A DNA stretch of 61,095 nt, from NCBI GenBank assembly GCA_038894195.1, contig JAWAPZ010000003.1, positions 1-61,095 on the forward strand, written 5' to 3'. A program made the translations under genes and the position numbers. This DNA is from Candidatus Pacearchaeota archaeon (GTDB lineage: Archaea; Nanobdellota; Nanobdellia; Pacearchaeales; UBA284). Positions 7,696-51,925 of the stretch are shown here, in pieces (the stretch's first letter is position 1; each line of letters starts with the position of its first letter). The notes beneath the pieces were generated by a model. It did no database searches. It saw only the letters and a list, made by a program, of their open reading frames with translations, and was not told the origin of the DNA.

Positions 7696-8979
7696 ATGGC
7701 AGGCGAGAAACCAAATTTCAACATAATTTTTGTTGGTCACGTAGACCACGGTAAAAGCACAGCTGTAGGTAGATTACTCTATGAAAGTGGAATTTTCTCT
7801 GAGCAAGAACTTGCTAAGATGAAAGATATGGCTGAAAAACTAGGTAAGAAAGGTTTTGAGTTTGCATTTGTCATGGATCGCTTAAAAGAGGAAAGAGAAA
7901 GAGGTTTGACAATTGACCTAGCATACAAAAAGATTATGACTAAAAAATATCAAGTAACTATAATAGATGCTCCTGGACACCGAGACTTTGTAAAGAACAT
8001 GATAACAGGAACAAGCCAGGCAGATGCAGCAATTCTTGTAGTTGCAGTTCAACATGGAATCATGGCACAAACCAGAGAACATGTTTGGCTCTGCAGAACG
8101 ATGGGTGTTGAACAAATTGCAGTGCTTATAAACCAAATGGACACTGTAAATTATGACAAAGAAAAATACAATAAAGTTGTCGAAGATCTAAAAAACTTGC
8201 TTAAAATGACTGGTTACAAAGTCGACAAGATTAATTTCATACCAGCAAGTGCATATGTTGGAGACAATATTTTCAAAAAATCACCTAATTTGTCTTGGTA
8301 CAATGGCCCCACTTTGCTTGAACAATTTGATTTATTTGAGCCACCAAAAAAACCAGTTGACATGCCTCTAAGGATGCCAATTGAAAATATTTATTCAATC
8401 ACAGGTGTTGGAACCGTACCAGTAGGTAAGATCCTAACAGGAAAAATGAAGCCTGGCGACAAAGTAATCATTCTGCCTGCCAGATCAGGCAAAGGAATTG
8501 AAGGCGAGGTTAAAACAATAGAAATGCATCACGAACAACTTAAAGAAGCAATTGCAGGTGATAATGTTGGTGTTAACATAAGAGGAATAGGAAAGCAGGA
8601 TGTAGCAAGGGGGGACGTAATCGCACACACAAGTTCGCCCCCACCTGTTGTTGAAGAATTCACAGCACAGATTGTGGTAATAAATCACCCAACGGTCATT
8701 GCAGTTGGCTATCAGCCTGTTTTGCATGTTCACACAGCACAGGTACCAGTGCAATTTACAGAACTCGTGAAAAAACTTGATCCAAAAACAGGCCAGGTTA
8801 CACAAGAAAAACCAGATTTTCTGAAGAATGGAGAGGTGGCTATAGTTAAGTTAAAACCAGTAAAACCGCTAGTCATAGAAAAACAAGAGAAAAACCCGCA
8901 TATGGCTCGTTTTGCAGTTCGTGATATGGGCCAAACAGTTGCTGCCGGTATTTGTATAGACGTGGTTGAGAAAAAATAG
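7696..8979 (+). CDS. tuf: Elongation factor 1-alpha
   Basis: [39 protein letters not shown]. Confidence 0.99.
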
Positions 8980-9086
8980 AACTTAATCATAAAGCAAATT
9001 TTTTCAGGAATATTTAATTTTTTGATTTGCCACATATAACTAAATACTGCAAGGACGATTTTCAAAATAAAATTAAACCCTTAAGC

Positions 9087-10274
9087 TCAAAAACTTAAAA
9101 ATTTAATTTTTTCACTTGTTGCTTGAAAATTCTTTGCAGCAACATACTTGCATGAAAGTTGCTCGGCAATATTAAGAATACCCTGTGTCAAAGTCCCATC
9201 AATAGCAAGAGCCTCTATTGTTCTATTGCTTCTTTTTAAAGAATACAAAAATCTAACAACATCCGAAGCTGATTTCTTTATAATTTTAAAACCTTGTTCT
9301 GTCCTTAAGACAATTGCACATGCTTTTGTTCCTTTAACCTCTTTAATAACCCTCTCAAAATCAATCTCAGGCAAACCAGTATGCTCCTTACTTGCATCTC
9401 GAACCTCATATTTTTTATTCTCTTGTTCTTGCTTCTTTCTTCCCTTTTTGAAAAAAGTTTTTTTAAAATCTTCTACTTTCTGTGCATTTCTCAAACAAGT
9501 TAGAATTTCCTTTTCTGTTAATTCTTCAACTTCTTTGCCATCTGGCGCACGGGCGATTGCACTGACATTAAGGTTATCCAAAGCATCTTTAACAATAAGC
9601 AACCCTCCACGATCGCCATCAACAAAAAGAGTTATCTTCTTGCCAGTCAGCTCTTTCAATGTTCTAGGAATAACAGCCCCGTTCATGGCAATAACATTCT
9701 TAATTCCAGCTTTCAATAAATTAAGAACATCTGCGCGGCCCTCCACAACAATTATTTCCTCGCTTGAATCAATATCCGGACCTGCTGGCAACCTGTCTTC
9801 ACCATACTCTACAATCTTAGAAATTTTTGCATGGCTTGAAATTTCATTTTCCATCTCTCTCGTTTCTGGCAGGGTAGATGAAAGTTTTTCAAGTAATACT
9901 TTTGCCCTTTCAACTATATACTGTCTTTTACTTGTTCTAACATCCTCTACTTTGACTATTTCAAATTTAGCATCACAAGGGCCAACCCTGTCTATAGTCT
10001 CGATAGCAGCTGCAATAATTGTAGTTTCTGTTTTATCTATACTAGTAGGAATTTCAACATCTCCGTAAGTCTTAGAATCTTCAACATGCAAGTTAGCTTC
10101 TATTCTCCCTATTTTTCCTTTTTTCTGCAACTCCCGAAGTTCAAGATCCTCACCAAGCAATCCTTCTGTCTGTCCAAAGATAGCCCCAATTAAGTCTGGT
10201 TTTTCTACAACACCCTCTGCAGTAAATTTTGCTTTTATTATGTATTTTATTGAAGGTGGACTAACTTTTCCCAT
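9087..10274 (-). CDS. dnaG: Archaeal DnaG (TOPRIM primase-like / exosome-associated)
   Basis: GVVEKPDLIGAIFGQTEGLLG, VVEGRADV, DGDRGG, APDGKEVEEL. Confidence 0.96.
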   Translation of the reverse strand: MGKVSPPSIKYIIKAKFTAEGVVEKPDLIGAIFGQTEGLLGEDLELRELQKKGKIGRIEANLHVEDSKTYGDVEIPTSIDKTETTIIAAAIETIDRVGPCDAKFEIVKVEDVRTSKRQYIVERAKVLLEKLSSTLPETREMENEISSHAKISKIVEYGEDRLPAGPDIDSSEEIIVVEGRADVLNLLKAGIKNVIAMNGAVIPRTLKELTGKKITLFVDGDRGGLLIVKDALDNLNVSAIARAPDGKEVEELTEKEILTCLRNAQKVEDFKKTFFKKGRKKQEQENKKYEVRDASKEHTGLPEIDFERVIKEVKGTKACAIVLRTEQGFKIIKKSASDVVRFLYSLKRSNRTIEALAIDGTLTQGILNIAEQLSCKYVAAKNFQATSEKIKFLSF

Positions 10275-10487
10275 CTTTCAACTTTAATTTACTGTACAAC
10301 CAAGTCATATAGAAATCTAAGTAAAAACCGAACAAACCTAATCATGAAAAATGATAAGGTGCTAATCCAATGATCTACGTGATTGTCGCAATATATGACT
10401 TGTGAATTTTAATTTGTGATTTTTTATAATTAATAGCCTCTTTGAAGGTATATAAATCTTACTATCAAGTAACAAAATTAAAGAAGT

Positions 10488-10673
10488 TTATCCAAAGAGA
10501 CCCTTTCTCTTTTTCTTCTTTTTTTTCTTGCCGAGCTTGCCAGCTTTTGCTAATTTTATTAGTTTGGCAACCTTAGATTTTTTGCTTTTCTTACTCGGCC
10601 CTCTTGACTTATTGAATTTTTTTCTTGCTTTCTTTTTAAACTTTTTTTTAACCTTCTTTTTCTTTTTTGCCAT
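10488..10673 (-). CDS. Lys-rich basic microprotein
   Basis: 61 aa, 31 Lys, no acidic residues; GAGGT SD upstream. Confidence 0.65.
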   Translation of the reverse strand: MAKKKKKVKKKFKKKARKKFNKSRGPSKKSKKSKVAKLIKLAKAGKLGKKKKKKKRKGLFG

Positions 10674-10724
10674 CTTCCAATTAAAACCTCAACTCCTCCA
10701 GTATACTGTTCCTCTTTTAAAATA

Positions 10725-10956
10725 AAAGCTGACATCTGGACTCGGTGAAGGAAGTGCCTTGAACAACCGCTGAATCAAACTTAACCTATCAGCTTGCTCT
10801 AAAGGTTATCTCCTTCGCCCCATAACTAAGCTTAACAGGTGCAGGTTTCATTTGGCGAGTTATAGTCCAGTCGCCAAATTACTAGCTGAAACACCTGGCA
10901 GAGGCTGTTATGGTAGCATCCTTTCCAGGACAACCGAAATGTCCTTTGTCAGCTTT
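10725..10956 (-). ncRNA. Unclassified structured RNA (~232 nt)
   Basis: 10-bp terminal helix, several internal helices, AGUA/GAA motif, 7-bp pseudoknot; TTTATATA box about 20 nt upstream; no ORF. Confidence 0.7.
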
Positions 10957-11011
10957 GATAAACTAATTTAATTGTATATAAAAAACTATCTAATTACTAA
11001 AAAGTAAGAAC

Positions 11012-12289
11012 TTATAAGACAAGTCTCTCGTTAAACTCACCACTGAAATTTTCGAGCATCAATTTTTTGACTTTATCAGAATTTCTCCTAACTTGCTGCC
11101 CAAGCAACCATCCTAACTTAACGAAAGCTGTTTCAGCAAGCATATCTTTCAAAAATAAAACACCCTCTTTTTCTAATTTTCTTGCAGGAGTATAAACATA
11201 AGGGTTGACTCTTCCTGAAATAGTTTGGCTAGTTATTCCAATAATAATATTTTTAGAAATTGCTTTTTTGATTGCAGGAAGCCAGGAATTCTTACCCTTA
11301 ACACAAATTTGTCCCATACCAAAAGCTTCAATAATAATTCCCTTATATTTTCTTTTGATTAAATCATTCAAAATTTCTGTATTTGCCCCTGGAAAAAATT
11401 TTACTAGTGCAGTTTTTTCATTAAAAAAAGCTAGAGCCTTCACTTTACCTAAATTTCTTTTTCTATACTTATGATTTAGAATCTCAATTTTTCCATCAGG
11501 AAAAATCCTTGCAATTGGAACATCATTCACTGCTTTAAAAGCTGCCCGTTCTGAAGAGTGCATCTTTCTTACTTTAGTTCCTCTTAAAGCTAAACAACTT
11601 AGGTCATTAGTATTTTCATGACCAACAATCATTACTTCAGCAACATCACTCAAAGCCATGTAACACGCACATTTCAAATTGAGGTGCGCATCGCTAGAAC
11701 CCCTGTCGATGCTTCTCTGGCTATAAGTTAAAACAACCGGTTTGTTTAAATTGTGTAACATAAATGCTAAAGCACTTGAAGTGTAATGTAGGGTGTCTGT
11801 CCCGTGTAGAATAACAACTCCTTTAATATCTTTCCTATTAAGTATTTTGGCAACCAGTCTTGCAAGTTTTTTCCATTCTCTGCTCGAAATCTGTGAGCTA
11901 TCGATACTGTAAGGAACTTGTATCTCAAATTGCACAACATTTTTTAGTTCAGGATAACTTTCAAGCAAATCCTGGGGCTTTCCAACAGCCAAAACACCAC
12001 CGGTTGCATAATCAACTTTGCTCGCGATGGTGCCACCTGTCGCGATGATTACTATCTTCGGTAATTTTTTGTCTTGTTCAACTACTCTTTCTCGTTTTTC
12101 TTTTTTAACATCACAAATCTTTTCCAGATTCAAAATATCTTTTTTATTAAATCCAACATTATAACCATTATTCAACTTTACAAGAATAATTTTGGGGTCA
12201 TAACTTTCAAGAGCGATTCCTTCAAGTTCCTGATCTTTTGTCCTTATCCTGATTTTTGAACCTATCTCTACATGAAATTTCATAAACAA
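11012..12289 (-). CDS. gatD: Glutamyl-tRNA(Gln) amidotransferase subunit D
   Basis: N-terminal SH3-like domain (KLNNGYNVG), GGTIAS, HGTDT, SQRS asparaginase motifs. Confidence 0.95.
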   Translation of the reverse strand: MFMKFHVEIGSKIRIRTKDQELEGIALESYDPKIILVKLNNGYNVGFNKKDILNLEKICDVKKEKRERVVEQDKKLPKIVIIATGGTIASKVDYATGGVLAVGKPQDLLESYPELKNVVQFEIQVPYSIDSSQISSREWKKLARLVAKILNRKDIKGVVILHGTDTLHYTSSALAFMLHNLNKPVVLTYSQRSIDRGSSDAHLNLKCACYMALSDVAEVMIVGHENTNDLSCLALRGTKVRKMHSSERAAFKAVNDVPIARIFPDGKIEILNHKYRKRNLGKVKALAFFNEKTALVKFFPGANTEILNDLIKRKYKGIIIEAFGMGQICVKGKNSWLPAIKKAISKNIIIGITSQTISGRVNPYVYTPARKLEKEGVLFLKDMLAETAFVKLGWLLGQQVRRNSDKVKKLMLENFSGEFNERLVL

Positions 12290-44263: not shown

Positions 44264-45922
44264 ATGTTTGAAGAAAAAATAAAAGCAAGGATTTCAGAAG
44301 CGACTGGAATGAAAAAAGATGAGATTTTTCTTGAAAAACCTAAAGAAAATTATGGAGATTACGCATTTCCATGCTTCAGTTTAGCAAAAAAACTAAAAAA
44401 AAATCCAATTGAAGTTGCAAAAGATTTGGCAAACAAAATAAAACCATCAAAAGAGATAGAAAAAGTTGTGGCACTCCATGGTTACTTGAATTTTTTTATT
44501 GACAAAGAAATAATGATCAAAAAAATTCTAAAAAAAGTTCTGGGAGAAGAAAAAAGAAAAAAGAAAAAAGACATAATTCTTGTAGAATCTCCAGGGCCAA
44601 ACACAAACAAGCCGCTACATGTCGGTCATCTAAGAAATTTATTTATAGGCGACTCTATTGCCAGGATATTTGAATTTCTTGGATATAGAGTAAAAAGGGT
44701 TGATATAATAAATAACAGAGGAATTCACATCTGCAAGTCAATGCTAGCTTATCAGAAATGGGGTAAAAATAGAAAGCCAGATAAAAAACCAGACCATTTT
44801 GTTGGCCAGTTTTATGTTTTATTTTCACAAAAAGCAAAAGAAAATCCAGAACTTGAAAAAGAAGCCCAAGAACTACTTAGAAAATGGGAACAACAAGATA
44901 AAAAAACATTAAAATTATGGAAAAAAATGAATTCTTGGGCTATGCAAGGAATTCAAAAAACTTATAGACTTTTGAATTTTAGACATGACAAACAATATTT
45001 TGAATCAGAAACTTACAAAAAAGGTAAAGAGATTGTATTGCAAGGGTTGAAAAAAGGAATTTTTAAGAAAAGTGATGATGGTTCGGTTTTTGTTGATCTT
45101 AAAGAACTAGGAAAAAAAGTTTTATTGAGGGGTGACGAAACTAGTATTTATATTACCCAAGATATTGGCCTTGCAAAGAAACGATACGAAGATTATAAAT
45201 TTAGTAAAATGTTTTATGTTGTTGCTTCTGAACAAGATTATCATTTTAAGTGCTTATTTAAAATTTTAAATTTGTTAGGTTATAAGTGGGCTAGGAATCT
45301 TGTACATTTAAGCTACGGTATGGTTAATCTACCTTCTGGAAAAATGAAATCAAGAGAGGGCACGGTAATTGATGCTGATGATCTTATTTCCGAGGTTCTT
45401 GAAGGTGCTAAAAAGGAATTAATCAAAAGGTACAAACTAAGCAAGCAAAAATTAAAAACTAGAAGCTTAGCCATTGCTATTGCTGCAATTAAATTTGCTT
45501 TGCTTAAAGTAGATATTAAAAAAAATATTTTATTTGACAAGAAAGAAGCTCTTGACTTTGAAGGTTTTTCTGGACCTTACTTACAATATAGCTATGCTCG
45601 TGCCTCGAGCATTTTAAAAAAAATTAAAAACAAGAAGAGTAAAAAAAATTTTAAGAATCTTAACGAATCAGAAATTAATCTTGTTAAAAAATTAAGCGAG
45701 TTTCCAAGCACTATAGAAAGAACAGCCAGAGAACTAAAACCAGATATTTTAGCAATTTATTCCTACGAACTAGCACAGCTATTTAGCAACTTTTACCATA
45801 CTTGTCCTGTTTCGCAAGCTAAAGAAGAACGAGGAAGAAGAATCTTGATAGTTCTTGCTTTTAAGAAAATAATGAAAAACTGTCTAAATCTTCTTGGTAT
45901 TGAAGCGATTGAGGAGATGTAA
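44264..45922 (+). CDS. argS: Arginyl-tRNA synthetase
   Basis: PNTNKPLHVGHLRN, MKSREG, GPYLQYSYAR, FYHTCPV. Confidence 0.97.
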   Translation: MFEEKIKARISEATGMKKDEIFLEKPKENYGDYAFPCFSLAKKLKKNPIEVAKDLANKIKPSKEIEKVVALHGYLNFFIDKEIMIKKILKKVLGEEKRKKKKDIILVESPGPNTNKPLHVGHLRNLFIGDSIARIFEFLGYRVKRVDIINNRGIHICKSMLAYQKWGKNRKPDKKPDHFVGQFYVLFSQKAKENPELEKEAQELLRKWEQQDKKTLKLWKKMNSWAMQGIQKTYRLLNFRHDKQYFESETYKKGKEIVLQGLKKGIFKKSDDGSVFVDLKELGKKVLLRGDETSIYITQDIGLAKKRYEDYKFSKMFYVVASEQDYHFKCLFKILNLLGYKWARNLVHLSYGMVNLPSGKMKSREGTVIDADDLISEVLEGAKKELIKRYKLSKQKLKTRSLAIAIAAIKFALLKVDIKKNILFDKKEALDFEGFSGPYLQYSYARASSILKKIKNKKSKKNFKNLNESEINLVKKLSEFPSTIERTARELKPDILAIYSYELAQLFSNFYHTCPVSQAKEERGRRILIVLAFKKIMKNCLNLLGIEAIEEM

Positions 45923-47812: not shown

Positions 47813-48631
47813 CTACTTAATTTTTAGTTTCTGTAAAGGTGTCATCTTGTTCCATGTTTCTTCAAAAACGCTGTCTAGTGCCTGCGTGAAAAAAGGACTG
47901 TTGATCCAGACAGCGGTATCATAGGTTGGATGTACCTCTTCGTCATTCAAAACCATAAGCATCGCCTCTTTCTTGTCGCTTAGTGTAAATCTTGCATTTA
48001 TCTTGCCACTCCTTACTTCTGCTATTTTACTCAACTCCTTAGCTATTTTATAGTTTTTTTCATTTATAGGAGCAGCTATTCTTATCTTGACACCCTTTTT
48101 TCTTGCTTTTTCTAAAGCTAATTTAAGTGCTTCAAACTTTCTGTTTAAACCATCTGCTGTTGTCACCATGACAAGTTCTTTGTTGGTATTTCTTATCATC
48201 ATATCTAGATGATTGTACAAGTTTGTTCTTCCTCTTAACGCACCACTCAATTCTGTCGGGTCTATATATCTAACTCCTTGCAAGAATAGAGAATTCAGTT
48301 CATTCATGATATCTGTCCCTTTTAACTCTTCTAATCTTTTTGCCATTTCTTGTGCCTCTCGCACCATATTCTTCTTAACCCTTTCAACAACCTCAGTTGG
48401 TTTAAAAGCAACGAACTTAATTGGTTTTCCAAGTTTCATCAATATAAATCCCTTCTTCTCTAGACTTTCTAGAATGTCATAAGTTCTAGATCTCGGAACA
48501 TTGGCTATATCACTTATTTCACCAGCTGTACTAACACCGCGAGAAAGTAATGCCGTCCACACCTTTACCTCGTATAGATTAAGCCCAAAAAGTTTTCGTA
48601 GCCTGCTCAAAGACTCTTCTTTTACAATCAT
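47813..48631 (-). CDS. TrmB-family regulator (TrmBL2-like)
   Basis: LNLYEVKVWTALL..VPRSRTYDILESLEKKG + effector domain. Confidence 0.9.
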   Translation of the reverse strand: MIVKEESLSRLRKLFGLNLYEVKVWTALLSRGVSTAGEISDIANVPRSRTYDILESLEKKGFILMKLGKPIKFVAFKPTEVVERVKKNMVREAQEMAKRLEELKGTDIMNELNSLFLQGVRYIDPTELSGALRGRTNLYNHLDMMIRNTNKELVMVTTADGLNRKFEALKLALEKARKKGVKIRIAAPINEKNYKIAKELSKIAEVRSGKINARFTLSDKKEAMLMVLNDEEVHPTYDTAVWINSPFFTQALDSVFEETWNKMTPLQKLKIK

Positions 48632-48680: not shown

Positions 48681-48727
48681 TTTAAAGCTTTCGTTTATTT
48701 TTCGGTTTTAGGTTTAAGTATATCGAC
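48681..48727 (-). repeat. 47-bp diverged direct repeat, copy A (contains trmB promoter)
   Basis: 35/47 identical, ungapped, to 51879-51925. Confidence 0.7.
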
Positions 48728-48743
48728 GAGAAAACGACAAAAA

Positions 48744-51635
48744 TTAAAAATAAATCTCGATTTTATGATCTTTTATATTCTTTCTCAATCTTAATATTGT
48801 CATTTTCTCAAAATCTATTGAAGAAGCATTAACTCTATCTCTGATTATTTTTTCATTCTTTTTTATTAATTCTTTTAAGTAACTATCACACTTAATCTGA
48901 AGTTTAATAAGGTGCCCTCTTTTTAGAGATGCTCTCTTCCTAGCCTCTTGGATAATTCTTACAATTTCGCGAAGGTAACCTTCTGCTTCTAATTCAGGAG
49001 TAAGTTTTGTGTCAAGCTTGACAGAAATTTCTTTTCCTTGTTTAATTTTAATTTTTTTGACATTTAATTGTCTCATTATCAAATTTTCTAGTTCGGGGTT
49101 TAATTTCTCTTTCGAGATTATTTCTGCATTAAGCAAAGGCCATTTTATCCCAACTCTCTTCTCTGCTCTTACTGCAAGACCTTTCTCAATAATTTGAAGT
49201 ACAACATCAAACAATTTTTCAAGTTGCTTATCTTCAAATTTTTTGTTTGCTTTCGGCCATCTACACAAATGAATCGATTCTTCTTTTAAATTAATTTTTT
49301 TCTTAAATTCTTGAAATATTTTTTCCGTTGTGAAAGGAATTGCTGGCGCAAGCAATTTTAAAGTGGTTAAGTAAGTATCTAGTAAAACTTTCAAAGCAAT
49401 CTTGCTGCTCTCATTTTTTTCCTGGAACTCTTGTACCCGCGGGCGAATCATTTGGATATAGGTTCTTGAAAGGTTATTAATAAAAAAATTCTCTATAGTC
49501 TTAAGATAAAAATCTGGTTTATATTCTTCAACGTATTTTGTTGATTCCTCTATGACACTGTTGATTCTACTTAAAATCCATCTGTCCTCTGGTTGGAGGT
49601 CTTTTTCAGAAAAATTATCATTTTCTATACCAAGTTCGAGTATATAATTGCCTATGTTGTTTAGAATATTTAAAGCACGTTCAGAATCTCTTGCAAGTTC
49701 AAAACTAAAATTCAAATTTTCATGCGGATTTACTCTTATGTACAAATATCTTAAAGCATCTGCACCTAATTTTTCAATAGCTTCATCAAGCCATATTGCA
49801 TTTCCTAAACTCTTATGCATTTCTCTTCCTTTTGCATCTTTAACGAGCTCGTATGTAAAAACATTTTTGTATGGTGCCTTGCCTTCAAGAACTACTCCTG
49901 CAAGTAACATAAAAAAGAACCATAATCTGTACTGTCCTGGACCGCATTCAAGAACAAGATCAGCAGGAAACCATTCATTAAAATATTTTTTATTTTTCAA
50001 CCAGTCTAAAGTATAGAAAGGAACAAGACCTGCGTCCATCCACACATCTACCGTATCTAAAACACGACGCATTAAACCACCACACTTACATCTCAAAAAA
50101 ACTTTATCGACGCCAGGTCTCCTGTGCTCTTTGAAATGTTCTATTCCTTTAACAGCCTTCTCCTTTAACTCATCAGCAGAACCTATAACCTCGAAGTTGT
50201 TACACTTTTCGCATTCCCATATAGGCATTGCTAACCCGTAATATCTTTTTCTGGAAAGAAGCCAGTCACCCATGTTTTCAAGCCAGTTTTGTTCATAGAA
50301 TTTTCCCTGCTCAGGAATCCAATTAACTGTTTCATTTGCCTCCATCAAAGCTTTTCTAATCTCTTTCATTGATATATACCATTCTGGAACAAGTCTGAAA
50401 ATAACCGGGGTTCTGCACCTGGTGCAATGTGGATAACTATGTTTATATTTTTCTTGCTTAAGTAAAAAATTTCTTTTCTCAAGGTCTTTGACTATTTCAT
50501 TATTAGCTTTAGAAGAATCCATGCCAGCAAGCCACCCATAACCCTCAAGATATTTACCTTCTTCATCAAGAGGCGAGATAGCAGGTAATTTGTATTGCTT
50601 GCCGAGCTGGTAATCCTCTGGCCCACAACCAGGAGCTATATGAACAATTCCAGTACCTTCCTCGCTACTAACATCCTGCCATAAGATAACTCTATGTGGC
50701 GCTTTAACTTTCTCCTTAGAATCTAACTTCGACCCAGCAATCCGCGATGCTTTTTGTGGTTCAAAATCTTTATAAGGCATTTTATACTGAATTCCTTCAA
50801 GATCTTTACCTAACATCTTACCAACAATCTCGAATTTTCCAAGGATTTTTTCAGCTAGATTTTCAGCTAGAATAAAAATTTCATTATTTTTCTTAGCTTT
50901 AACATAATAAATTCCCGGATGAACAGCTAACGCGACATTTGCAGGCAAGGTCCATGGTGTTGTTGTCCAAACTAGAAAATATTCTTTCTCATTCGTGTTT
51001 TTAACAGGAAATTTCAAGTAAACAGCAACATCCTCGCGATCTTCGTAGCCCTCTGTTGCTAACGCATGCTTTGATTGTGCTGTTGTGCATCTCGGGCACC
51101 AAGGAACAACATCTATCCCTTTATATAACCACCCCTTCTCGTGACAGTGCTTTATAAAAAACCATTTGTAATCATTTGCTATAAAACTATGCGTGTAATA
51201 ACTGTTTTCCCAATCCATCCACTGCCCCAAACGAATTGACTGCTCTGTTATTAATTTCGCCATTCTTTCAGTTCTTTCTTTGCAAGCTTCAACAAAATTT
51301 TCTATTCCGAATTTTTCTATATCCTCCACAGTTTTCAAACCTTTCTCTTTCTCAACTTCAACCTCAATCCAAAGACCTTGGCAATCAAAACCATTCTGAA
51401 ATCTCTGTTGAAAACCTTGCATCGCCTTAAACCTTTGAAAAAAATCTTTATAAGTACGACCCCACGCATGATGGACCCCCATAGGATTGTTGGCAGTTAT
51501 AGGGCCATCTATAAAACTCCATCTCTTACCTTTACTATTTTGTTTGCAGAGTTTATCAAAAATCTTATTTTCTTTCCAAAATCTCAAAATCTCAAGTTCT
51601 GTTTCTTTAGACATAGTAATTAAAAATAATGGCAC
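48744..51635 (-). CDS. ileS: Isoleucyl-tRNA synthetase, atypical GVHH type (likely start 51614)
   Basis: DGPITANNPMGVHH, GFDCQGL, WTTTPWTLPAN, DWLLSRKRYYG, EMHKSLGN. Confidence 0.93.
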   Translation of the reverse strand: MPLFLITMSKETELEILRFWKENKIFDKLCKQNSKGKRWSFIDGPITANNPMGVHHAWGRTYKDFFQRFKAMQGFQQRFQNGFDCQGLWIEVEVEKEKGLKTVEDIEKFGIENFVEACKERTERMAKLITEQSIRLGQWMDWENSYYTHSFIANDYKWFFIKHCHEKGWLYKGIDVVPWCPRCTTAQSKHALATEGYEDREDVAVYLKFPVKNTNEKEYFLVWTTTPWTLPANVALAVHPGIYYVKAKKNNEIFILAENLAEKILGKFEIVGKMLGKDLEGIQYKMPYKDFEPQKASRIAGSKLDSKEKVKAPHRVILWQDVSSEEGTGIVHIAPGCGPEDYQLGKQYKLPAISPLDEEGKYLEGYGWLAGMDSSKANNEIVKDLEKRNFLLKQEKYKHSYPHCTRCRTPVIFRLVPEWYISMKEIRKALMEANETVNWIPEQGKFYEQNWLENMGDWLLSRKRYYGLAMPIWECEKCNNFEVIGSADELKEKAVKGIEHFKEHRRPGVDKVFLRCKCGGLMRRVLDTVDVWMDAGLVPFYTLDWLKNKKYFNEWFPADLVLECGPGQYRLWFFFMLLAGVVLEGKAPYKNVFTYELVKDAKGREMHKSLGNAIWLDEAIEKLGADALRYLYIRVNPHENLNFSFELARDSERALNILNNIGNYILELGIENDNFSEKDLQPEDRWILSRINSVIEESTKYVEEYKPDFYLKTIENFFINNLSRTYIQMIRPRVQEFQEKNESSKIALKVLLDTYLTTLKLLAPAIPFTTEKIFQEFKKKINLKEESIHLCRWPKANKKFEDKQLEKLFDVVLQIIEKGLAVRAEKRVGIKWPLLNAEIISKEKLNPELENLIMRQLNVKKIKIKQGKEISVKLDTKLTPELEAEGYLREIVRIIQEARKRASLKRGHLIKLQIKCDSYLKELIKKNEKIIRDRVNASSIDFEKMTILRLRKNIKDHKIEIYF

Positions 51636-51686: not shown

Positions 51687-51839
51687 TTAAAATTCGCTTT
51701 CTTCTGTGTCAAACAATTCTTCATCAGTATTTTCCTCTTCGGGTTCTGCTCCGTCGCTAAACTCTTCTTCTTGCTCTTCTTCTTGTGTTTCTTCTTTCTC
51801 CTCTATCGGTTCTCCCTTCTTTTTTTTCTTTTTTGCCAT
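51687..51839 (-). CDS. 50-aa basic-then-acidic microprotein (absent from ORF track)
   Basis: MAKKKKKKGEPIEEKEETQEEEQEEEFSDGAEPEEENTDEELFDTEESEF; GGAGAT SD and TATA upstream. Confidence 0.65.
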   Translation of the reverse strand: MAKKKKKKGEPIEEKEETQEEEQEEEFSDGAEPEEENTDEELFDTEESEF

Positions 51840-51878
51840 TTTTTTATCTCCAGTTAAATGCAAGGGATTTAGACGATT

Positions 51879-51925
51879 TATAAAACTTTCGTTTGTTTTT
51901 CGGTTTACGTTTTTATATGCTCGAC
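51879..51925 (-). repeat. 47-bp diverged direct repeat, copy B
   Basis: 35/47 identical to 48681-48727. Confidence 0.7.

Follow-up and report, generated by a model that had tools for sequence, protein, structure and literature searches.

Loss of the first histidine of the HIGH signature lowers amino acid activation by about 1000-fold in several class I enzymes (PMC10485003), and the swap to GXHH abolishes the activity of isoleucyl-tRNA synthetases (IleRSs) of the IleRS1 and IleRS-A types (PMC10485003, PMC13752280). In IleRS2, the histidine at position 3 can occupy the site where the first one acts, and the adenine is not displaced (PMC10485003). Natural G/AXHH IleRS2 enzymes show near-normal kcat/KM together with mupirocin inhibition constants (Ki) in the mM range. 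The ALHH enzyme of D. radiodurans has a normal kcat/KM and a Ki of 6.6 mM, which became 823-fold lower on conversion to HVGH, and GVHH engineered into the IleRS2 of T. thermophilus or P. megaterium raised the Ki about 200-fold (PMC10485003). The G/AXHH form is confined to IleRS2 (HUP-2) and never occurs in IleRS-A or IleRS1; GIHH is described as belonging to HUP-2, and IleRS2 enzymes are known from archaea (PMC13752280). It is therefore already established that the motif exists, that it is limited to IleRS2 and that DPANN archaea possess IleRS2 (PMC10485003, PMC13752280). Here we analysed a 61,095-nucleotide stretch of a Candidatus Pacearchaeota archaeon (contig JAWAPZ010000003.1 of assembly GCA_038894195.1; the window), whose ileS gene encodes an enzyme with GVHH in place of HIGH and EMHKS in place of KMSKS.

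We consider, with a probability of roughly 0.8, that this enzyme is the single housekeeping IleRS of a Pacearchaeota-like member of Nanoarchaeia, and that it belongs to a deep, cross-domain subclade of IleRS2 (HUP-2) in which both signatures are fixed in non-canonical form and mupirocin insensitivity would be inherited. This reading was built on the observed identity of the gene, its clade membership, the fixation of the motifs, the single copy and the synteny, and it extends to predicted roles of H55 and H607 and a predicted drug insensitivity. By itself the gene calls for no more than routine annotation, as a housekeeping IleRS2 of the non-canonical G/AXHH class described in 2023. What merits follow-up is that, in the KMSKS loop, the first lysine and a third-position histidine exclude each other, and that ileS has turned over rapidly and in place within one DPANN family.

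The ileS gene and its two altered signatures

48744..51614, minus strand: ileS coding sequence, 956 amino acids (aa), likely ATG start at 51614 (TIGR00392, Pfam)
51456..51506, minus strand: extended first signature GPITANNPMGVHHAWGR, residues 44-60, with GVHH at 51468-51479 (residues 53-56) in place of HxGH
49809..49823, minus strand: EMHKS (in KGREMHKSLGN), residues 605-609, at the KMSKS position

The open frame covers 48744..51635 on the minus strand (963 codons) and reaches upstream to a GTG at 51635; a database entry (P0002) is the identical 956-aa protein, which fits the ATG start at 51614. With the ileS equivalog model TIGR00392, whose cut-off is 621.4, the protein reached 731.8 bits; the valS model gave 458.5 bits (cut-off 612), and in our profile scoring it remained under the cut-off for all ValRS, LeuRS and MetRS models. 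Passing the TIGR00392 cut-off identifies it as an IleRS rather than a ValRS or LeuRS. Pfam assigned the class I catalytic domain (tRNA-synt_1), Anticodon_1 and DUF5915. The best solved relative in phmmer was T. thermophilus IleRS2 (1ile, 4.9e-167), and the P. megaterium IleRS2 structures (8c8u-8c9d) matched at about 1e-158 (best 9e-160). IleRS1 structures gave weaker matches, from 2e-99 to 7e-97 for 8c9f, 1ffy and 8c9e, and 1.9e-67 for 8wni and 8wnf.

The plus strand at 51468-51479 reads atgatggacccc, and the reverse complement GGG GTC CAT CAT encodes G-V-H-H. Residues G53-V54-H55-H56 thus combine Gly at position 1 with His at position 3 of HIGH, as in the G/AXHH class (Gly or Ala at position 1). 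In EMHKS the second lysine is kept (K608, invariant in our alignment A1), the first lysine is replaced by Glu and the serine at position 3 by His. In the phmmer alignment, GVHH matched the HVGH of 1ile and the GVHH of the P. megaterium IleRS2 entry 8c8w column for column, and EMHKS stood opposite KMSKS of both. A preliminary description of this DNA had reported GVHH for HIGH and EMHKS for KMSKS, and both were borne out by the translation and the structure alignment.

50931..50969, minus strand: Thr-rich peptide WTTTPWTLPANVA of the CP1 editing domain (WTTTPWT), with T224, T225 and T229 invariant in A1
50610..50657, minus strand: editing-domain motif GTGIVHIAPGCGPEDY (GTG.VH.AP..G..D type), with G327, G329, H332, A334, P335, G338 and D341 invariant in A1
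48798..49109, minus strand: type-2 C-terminal domain DUF5915 (PF19302, Pfam), residues 843-946

From established IleRS knowledge, we take the Thr-rich peptide to be the editing-site peptide. Both motifs of the CP1 editing domain of IleRS are intact in the query. The C-terminus is of type 2, with DUF5915 rather than IleRS1's zinc-binding domain, and it aligns with residues 899-1007 of P. megaterium IleRS2 and with the Sutcliffiella plasmid IleRS2.

The assembly (G000; 535 kb in 9 contigs, estimated 70% complete, the window being contig 3) contains the window ileS as its sole locus over the ileS cut-off, so the search for a second ileS that the preliminary description had proposed found none in what is present of the genome. 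The ValRS (814 aa) and LeuRS (833 aa) of the same genome carry HVGH/KMSKS and HMGH/KMSKS, respectively. Since these two enzymes have canonical motifs, the deviation is specific to IleRS and does not reflect genome-wide drift.

With both ATP-binding signatures damaged, the product might be seen as an impaired or non-translational IleRS-like paralogue, and the roughly 1000-fold lower activation after loss of the first histidine (PMC10485003) and the inactivity of GXHH variants of IleRS1 and IleRS-A (PMC10485003, PMC13752280) would agree with this. We regard such a paralogue as very improbable, because the gene is the sole ileS both here and in near-complete relatives, purifying selection is strong across hundreds of genomes, the IleRS2/HUP-2 clade tolerates GXHH at near-normal kcat/KM (PMC10485003), and neither the second KMSKS lysine nor the editing site has been lost.

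Placement and spread of the GVHH/xMHKS subfamily

The placement of the enzyme was analysed with FastTree trees of 136 and 171 rows, with a full-length IQ-TREE tree (LG+G4) of 78 rows that included 3 ValRS outgroups, the IleRS1 of E. coli and A. baumannii, MupA and the Sutcliffiella plasmid IleRS2, and with an IQ-TREE tree (LG+C20 PMSF) of the catalytic core only (query residues 40-172 and 500-648). In every tree the query fell inside a GVHH clade (support 99), which was sister to or grouped with MupA, the Sutcliffiella IleRS2, eukaryote-like HYGH sequences and a GIHH/ALHH + KMSKS clade. This joint IleRS2 clade of 52 rows had a support of 99 in the full-length tree and 95 with the catalytic core. 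The GVHH clade lay outside IleRS1 (E. coli, A. baumannii) and outside the basal archaeal HxG[HT] grade, and membership in IleRS-A does not apply to the query, which has the GVHH motif; several branches, each supported at 95 or more, stand between it and the IleRS-A-like clade of Nanoarchaeia. The type-2 assignment, for which the preliminary description had suggested a phylogeny against IleRS1 and IleRS2, was thus upheld by both full-length and catalytic-core trees; its DPANN host was also correct, as the nearest homologues come from metagenome-assembled genomes (MAGs) of Pacearchaeota, Woesearchaeota and Nanoarchaeota.

Both altered motifs are ancestral, near-invariant characters of a large cross-domain subfamily. 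We collected near homologues as the best 120 matches among 5.8 billion proteins (49-73% identity to the query), and the named ones were MAGs of the three groups above or of the 'DPANN group'. All 120 carry G[VI]HH, together with EMHKS in 118, AMHKS in 1 and DMHKS in 1. The 17-mer of the first signature is nearly invariant in 121/121 near homologues and in 80 named loci from many phyla. An exhaustive search of 50%-identity representatives gave three main motif styles: (a) GPITANNPMGVHHAWGR combined with a KMSKS loop that begins with a residue other than Lys (such as xMHKS or xFSKT); (b) GPPTANG.PG[IVL]HH with KMSKS; and (c) archaeal GPPY..G..HxG[TH]AWNK with KMSKS, in some cases with xMHKS. The 80 named loci came from a scan of one genome per species and are of style (a). 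Every one of them has xxHH (GVHH 77, GIHH 1, GAHH 1, AVHH 1), 79 of the 80 carry His in third place in the KMSKS loop (xMHK[ST]), and Lys at its first position occurs in 0/80.

The hosts of style (a) are spread over both prokaryotic domains. The archaea among them are DPANN, Bathyarchaeia, Nitrososphaerota and Thorarchaeota, and those of the candidate phyla radiation (CPR) are Nealson-, Gribaldo- and Staskawiczbacteria and records labelled Saccharibacteria. The other bacteria include many Chloroflexota and Thermomicrobia, besides Planctomycetota, Fidelibacterota, KSB1 and Cloacimonadota, as well as Spirochaetota, Acidobacteriota, Bacillota and Armatimonadota; the source-named representatives add Heimdallarchaeota, Gemmatimonadota and Magnetococcales. 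Because the pair of motifs is fixed across these phyla, both are taken as ancestral to the subfamily.

Many archaeal IleRS-A-like sequences were found to have HxGT, with Thr (or Asn/Gln) for the fourth residue, His, of HIGH (P0146-P0264; L105, L113, L114, L124, L126), and 11 IleRS-A-like HxG[T/N/Q] sequences also have xMHKS. The published account of the IleRS-A group stresses near-absolute conservation of HIGH.

An earlier study described a 'minor IleRS2 clade' whose reconstructed ancestor was already GXHH, and an 'IleRS2 early branch' sparsely sampled from Planctomycetota and Chloroflexi (PMC10485003). Judged by taxa and motif, the query clade probably corresponds to this minor clade and early branch of Brkic 2023. 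The supplement texts of PMC10485003 contain no occurrence of MHKS, Chloroflex, Planctomyc or the extended GVHH signature.

An INS subdomain of about 80 residues, located in ARD2 and present in many IleRS2 members though not all, is absent from the query between residues 866/867 (about 49035-49040; residues 864-869 of the open frame span 49029-49046). The gap is 76-81 residues when measured against its nearest longer relatives P0007, P0017 and P0122 (1033-1046 aa) and against the enzymes of Phycisphaerae, Dehalococcoidia, Bathyarchaeia and the Sutcliffiella plasmid. Repeated, independent INS losses have been described in IleRS2 and in IleRS-A (PMC13752280), so the absence is no bar to IleRS2 membership. 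In our tree the INS-less pair of the query and P0003 is sister to the INS-bearing P0007/P0017, and the next group is again INS-less; because of this alternation, more than one loss within the DPANN subclade is likely. The CPR Nealsonbacteria enzymes likewise lack INS, which points to repeated and independent losses.

Residence and turnover of ileS in Nanoarchaeia

47813..48631, minus strand: gene of a TrmB-family regulator (trmB; Pfam TrmB), directly downstream of ileS and used as synteny anchor

Past trmB lies a MiaB-like radical S-adenosylmethionine (radical-SAM) gene, and THUMP-domain, IscU and radical-SAM genes lie upstream of ileS; these ileS neighbours are housekeeping genes, and no mobile-element gene was seen. 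The GC content of ileS is 34.7%, compared with 34.2 ± 2.3% for 177 long open reading frames (ORFs) of the genome, and at third codon positions (GC3) it is 28.8%, compared with 25.2 ± 2.4% for the same ORFs.

Two similar direct repeats of about 47 nucleotides flank ileS (48681-48727 and 51879-51925) and share AAACCGAAAAA.AAACGAAAG.TTTA, which resembles a B recognition element (BRE) with a TATA box. The trmB gene has one of them upstream, and a small ORF followed by ileS has the other. We considered them as insertion scars and rejected this, as they resemble paired BRE/TATA promoter elements. The small ORF (51687-51863, minus strand), between the promoter-like element and ileS, encodes a lysine run followed by a very acidic tail (MAKKKKKKGEP...EEE...). 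In the 535-kb assembly, aragorn found 11 tRNA genes and no tRNA-Ile, which may reflect incompleteness or intron-containing or split archaeal tRNAs.

To place the gene among its relatives we used 200 other near-complete genomes, taken evenly across the phylum sample and all sharing class or order with G000, with this protein as the only query and no ileS family model. One match with E of at most 1e-100 was found in 196/200 genomes and two in 0. Identity to the query of at least 43% was reached in 17/200, that is, about 9% have the query type. The 15 of these 17 genes that were fetched all encode GVHH/xMHKS enzymes of 929-961 aa. Among 25 genes fetched from the remaining sample, 17 were IleRS-A-like (HxG[HT] + KMSKS), 3 were GLHH/ALHH + KMSKS (the other IleRS2 clade), 3 were eukaryote-like HYGH and 2 belonged to a further HVGH lineage. 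At least five IleRS lineages are thus seen in Nanoarchaeia: GVHH/xMHKS, GLHH/ALHH + KMSKS, HYGH, 'GPPYAND..HVGH' and IleRS-A-like (loci L087-L126, L135, L138). Four families (f2, f23, f25 and f41) are of mixed IleRS type. A single clade for all 30 Nanoarchaeia rows was rejected (delta lnL 1578, approximately unbiased test p-AU 4.6e-10), in a test whose group was defined post hoc from the tree and whose likelihood margin was very large.

The window genome belongs to family f1, and within its order only family f2 was sampled, which by itself contains three types: GVHH in G031 and G189, GLHH + KMSKS in G106 and HYGH in G085. Each of these four genomes has a single ileS over the cut-off. In G031, G189 and G106, ileS is immediately upstream of trmB, whose product is 61-65% identical to that of the window, and in G031 and G106 a homologue of the window gene 44264-45922 follows on the opposite strand. 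In G106, a different IleRS2 lineage therefore occupies the same ileS-trmB slot as the GVHH type of the window, G031 and G189. This slot and the rejected monophyly together indicate that lateral replacement of ileS is frequent in the group. The GVHH enzymes of G031 and G189 are only 49-52% identical to the query, and a type shared with relatives at only about 50% identity must have been resident in the query lineage for a long time. In another genome (G153), a pseudogene fragment of a second GVHH-type ileS was observed at L136:13803-14044, about 2.8 kb from the intact ileS at 8377-11025. It corresponds to residues 2-85 of the 956-aa query protein (counted from the ATG at 51614), with two in-frame stops, reads ANNPMGVHHARGR, and looks like a relic of duplication or replacement.

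The same data bear on how the query lineage obtained its enzyme. A recent lateral gain of a bacterial hyper-resistant ileS2, selected by mupirocin-like antibiotics acting on the archaeon or its host community, would fit the exchange of IleRS types in the class documented by the monophyly test, the three types within f2, and the catalytic-core tree, where the EMHKS-type DPANN sequences join a group of CPR and other bacteria (support 95). We nevertheless consider such a gain improbable. The composition of ileS is native, and its neighbours are trmB, THUMP, iscU and radical-SAM genes rather than mobile elements. The same type at 49-52% identity in the same slot of G031 and G189 speaks for long residence, and in the full-length trees the DPANN sequences form a subclade by themselves (support 97-99), next to the bacterial, CPR and TACK members taken together. 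The motif is fixed throughout the subfamily, anaerobic subsurface lineages included, and the split of HUP-1 and HUP-2 has been argued to be older than mupirocin (PMC13752280).

An opposite view is that GVHH/xMHKS is the ancestral IleRS2 of Nanoarchaeia, or part of them, and that the other types are later replacements. In the full-length trees, the Nanoarchaeia sequence L101 splits off and after it the DPANN-only subclade, both earlier than the bacterial, CPR and TACK members, and the origin of IleRS2 has been placed in archaea (PMC13752280). Such vertical descent is possible, although we lean against it: the type occurs in only 17/200 of the other sampled class genomes, the fetched remainder is mostly IleRS-A-like and forms its own well-supported Nanoarchaeia clade, the catalytic-core tree no longer recovers the DPANN members of the GVHH clade as monophyletic, and no host is attached to the basal rows P0130 and P0148. 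The full-length and core trees conflict and therefore favour no single direction of interdomain transfer.

Our preferred reading, an inherited housekeeping IleRS2, differs here from the preliminary description, which had proposed possible lateral acquisition or selection by antibiotic exposure. The motif pair is fixed in the subfamily, the composition is native and the same type sits in the ileS-trmB slot within the same order, which argues against a special or recent event, and antibiotic selection is not needed to explain the motif. The suggested lateral acquisition survives in part: exchange of IleRS within the class is real, as the rejected monophyly showed, and for the query lineage any exchange would be old and could have run in either direction. 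The preliminary description had also named an ancestral motif widespread in archaea as one outcome that would overturn it. Within the subfamily the motif is indeed ancestral, and several archaeal phyla have it, but among the sampled class genomes it is found in only about 9%.

These results have several consequences. Naturally GVHH enzymes serve as the sole IleRS in some DPANN archaea. Their predicted insensitivity is inherited and not antibiotic-driven, and this argues against using the motif as a resistance marker in metagenomes. The three IleRS lineages within f2, one replacing another in place, point to free exchange of an essential translation gene in reduced genomes.

The KMSKS loop, mupirocin and the described enzymes

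The residues of the KMSKS loop were counted in 255 diverse IleRS sequences. His at position 3 was present in 135/255, and among these Lys at position 1 was found in 0 (E 85, P 22, A 14, D 6, S 4, others 5). K..S.. was present in 105/255, and 15/255 had neither Lys1 nor His3. The His3 state changed at least about 12 times on the tree, and in phylogenetically independent pairs His3 went with loss of Lys1 in the same direction about 6 times and in the opposite direction 0 times (median sign-test p 0.03). In raw counts, a non-canonical HIGH (xxHH or HxG[T/N/Q]) was found in 133/134 xMHKS sequences; in phylogenetically independent pairs this association was not significant (median p 0.6), and neither was the coupling of GxHH with MHKS. 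GxHH without MHKS occurred in 41 sequences and MHKS without GxHH in 12. As the two are separable, the change in KMSKS is not required by the GVHH swap. The EMHKS/xMHKS variant was not found discussed in the searchable literature, in which figures are not searchable.

We hypothesize from these patterns that the function of Lys1 may have been handed over to His3, in parallel to the transfer from His1 to His3 in HIGH. In the query, by analogy with G/AXHH IleRS2, H55 at the third position of GVHH would provide the catalytic imidazole that usually comes from the first His, K608 would keep the essential role of the second KMSKS lysine, and H607 would probably take over that of the lost first lysine. 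More tentatively, GVHH and xMHKS might have become adapted to each other as a distinct arrangement of the active site, with the catalytic groups redistributed inside each of the two signature loops, an idea that we hold as possible yet doubtful. If it were true, the KMSKS change could alter the handling of ATP and the transition state as well as inhibitor binding, beyond the known GXHH effect. The exclusion between Lys1 and His3 leads to a directly testable hypothesis on class I synthetase catalysis.

As the sole IleRS of its genome, the query enzyme should be fully active; it should also be intrinsically poorly inhibited by mupirocin. The preliminary description was right in its background that IleRS2 with the swapped GxHH is hyper-resistant in bacteria (mM Ki for natural enzymes, about 200-fold for engineered GVHH; PMC10485003), and hyper-resistance of the query is a reasonable prediction by extension. 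The first residue of KMSKS in P. megaterium IleRS2 forms part of the wall of the cleft that takes the carboxylate tail of mupirocin (PMC10485003), and we speculate that Glu at this position could add to the exclusion of the drug. In the column of P. megaterium IleRS2 H582, a published mupirocin contact, the residues of T. thermophilus and P. megaterium differ.

Several points weigh against our overall reading. With only about 70% of the genome recovered, a second ileS is conceivable. The natural G/AXHH enzymes tested so far (D. radiodurans ALHH, S. griseus) have KMSKS, and activity and Ki of the query would be extrapolated from them; in our trees, ALHH-type sequences fall in the other IleRS2 clade. 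PMC10485003 and PMC13752280 state no assayed enzyme from the GVHH/xMHKS subclade, and unexpected variability of the mupirocin response was reported among archaeal enzymes (PMC13752280). The proposed match to the 'minor clade' draws on taxa and motif and is correspondingly provisional.

Among the described systems, the plasmid-borne MupA/MupB of staphylococci belong to the same IleRS2 family as the query, with 34% identity over 90% of the length. MupA is mobile and has HTGH + KMSKS, whereas the query is chromosomal and housekeeping. We rejected the query as an orthologue of MupA/MupB, since its scores of 526 bits on NF000257 and 546 bits on NF000258 are below the cut-off of 1900. Woesearchaeota and Micrarchaeota have IleRS-A enzymes (Modrusan 2026, PMC13752280) that are DPANN IleRSs like the query, but these have HIGH, are inactivated by the swap and belong to another clade. 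DaIleRS2 of Candidatus Diapherotrites (PMC13752280) is a DPANN HUP-2 enzyme which tolerates GIHH and resists mupirocin; its natural motif is canonical, GIHH being a made mutant, whereas the query is naturally GVHH.

The G/AXHH IleRS2 enzymes of Brkic 2023 (D. radiodurans ALHH, S. griseus and the engineered GVHH enzymes; PMC10485003) share with the query the family, the swap between positions 1 and 3 of HIGH, the type-2 C-terminus and the housekeeping role. The query differs from them by its place in the 'minor' subclade, with the extended signature TANNPMGVHHAWGR instead of TANG.PGIHH, by xMHKS instead of KMSKS, by the lack of INS and by its archaeal host.

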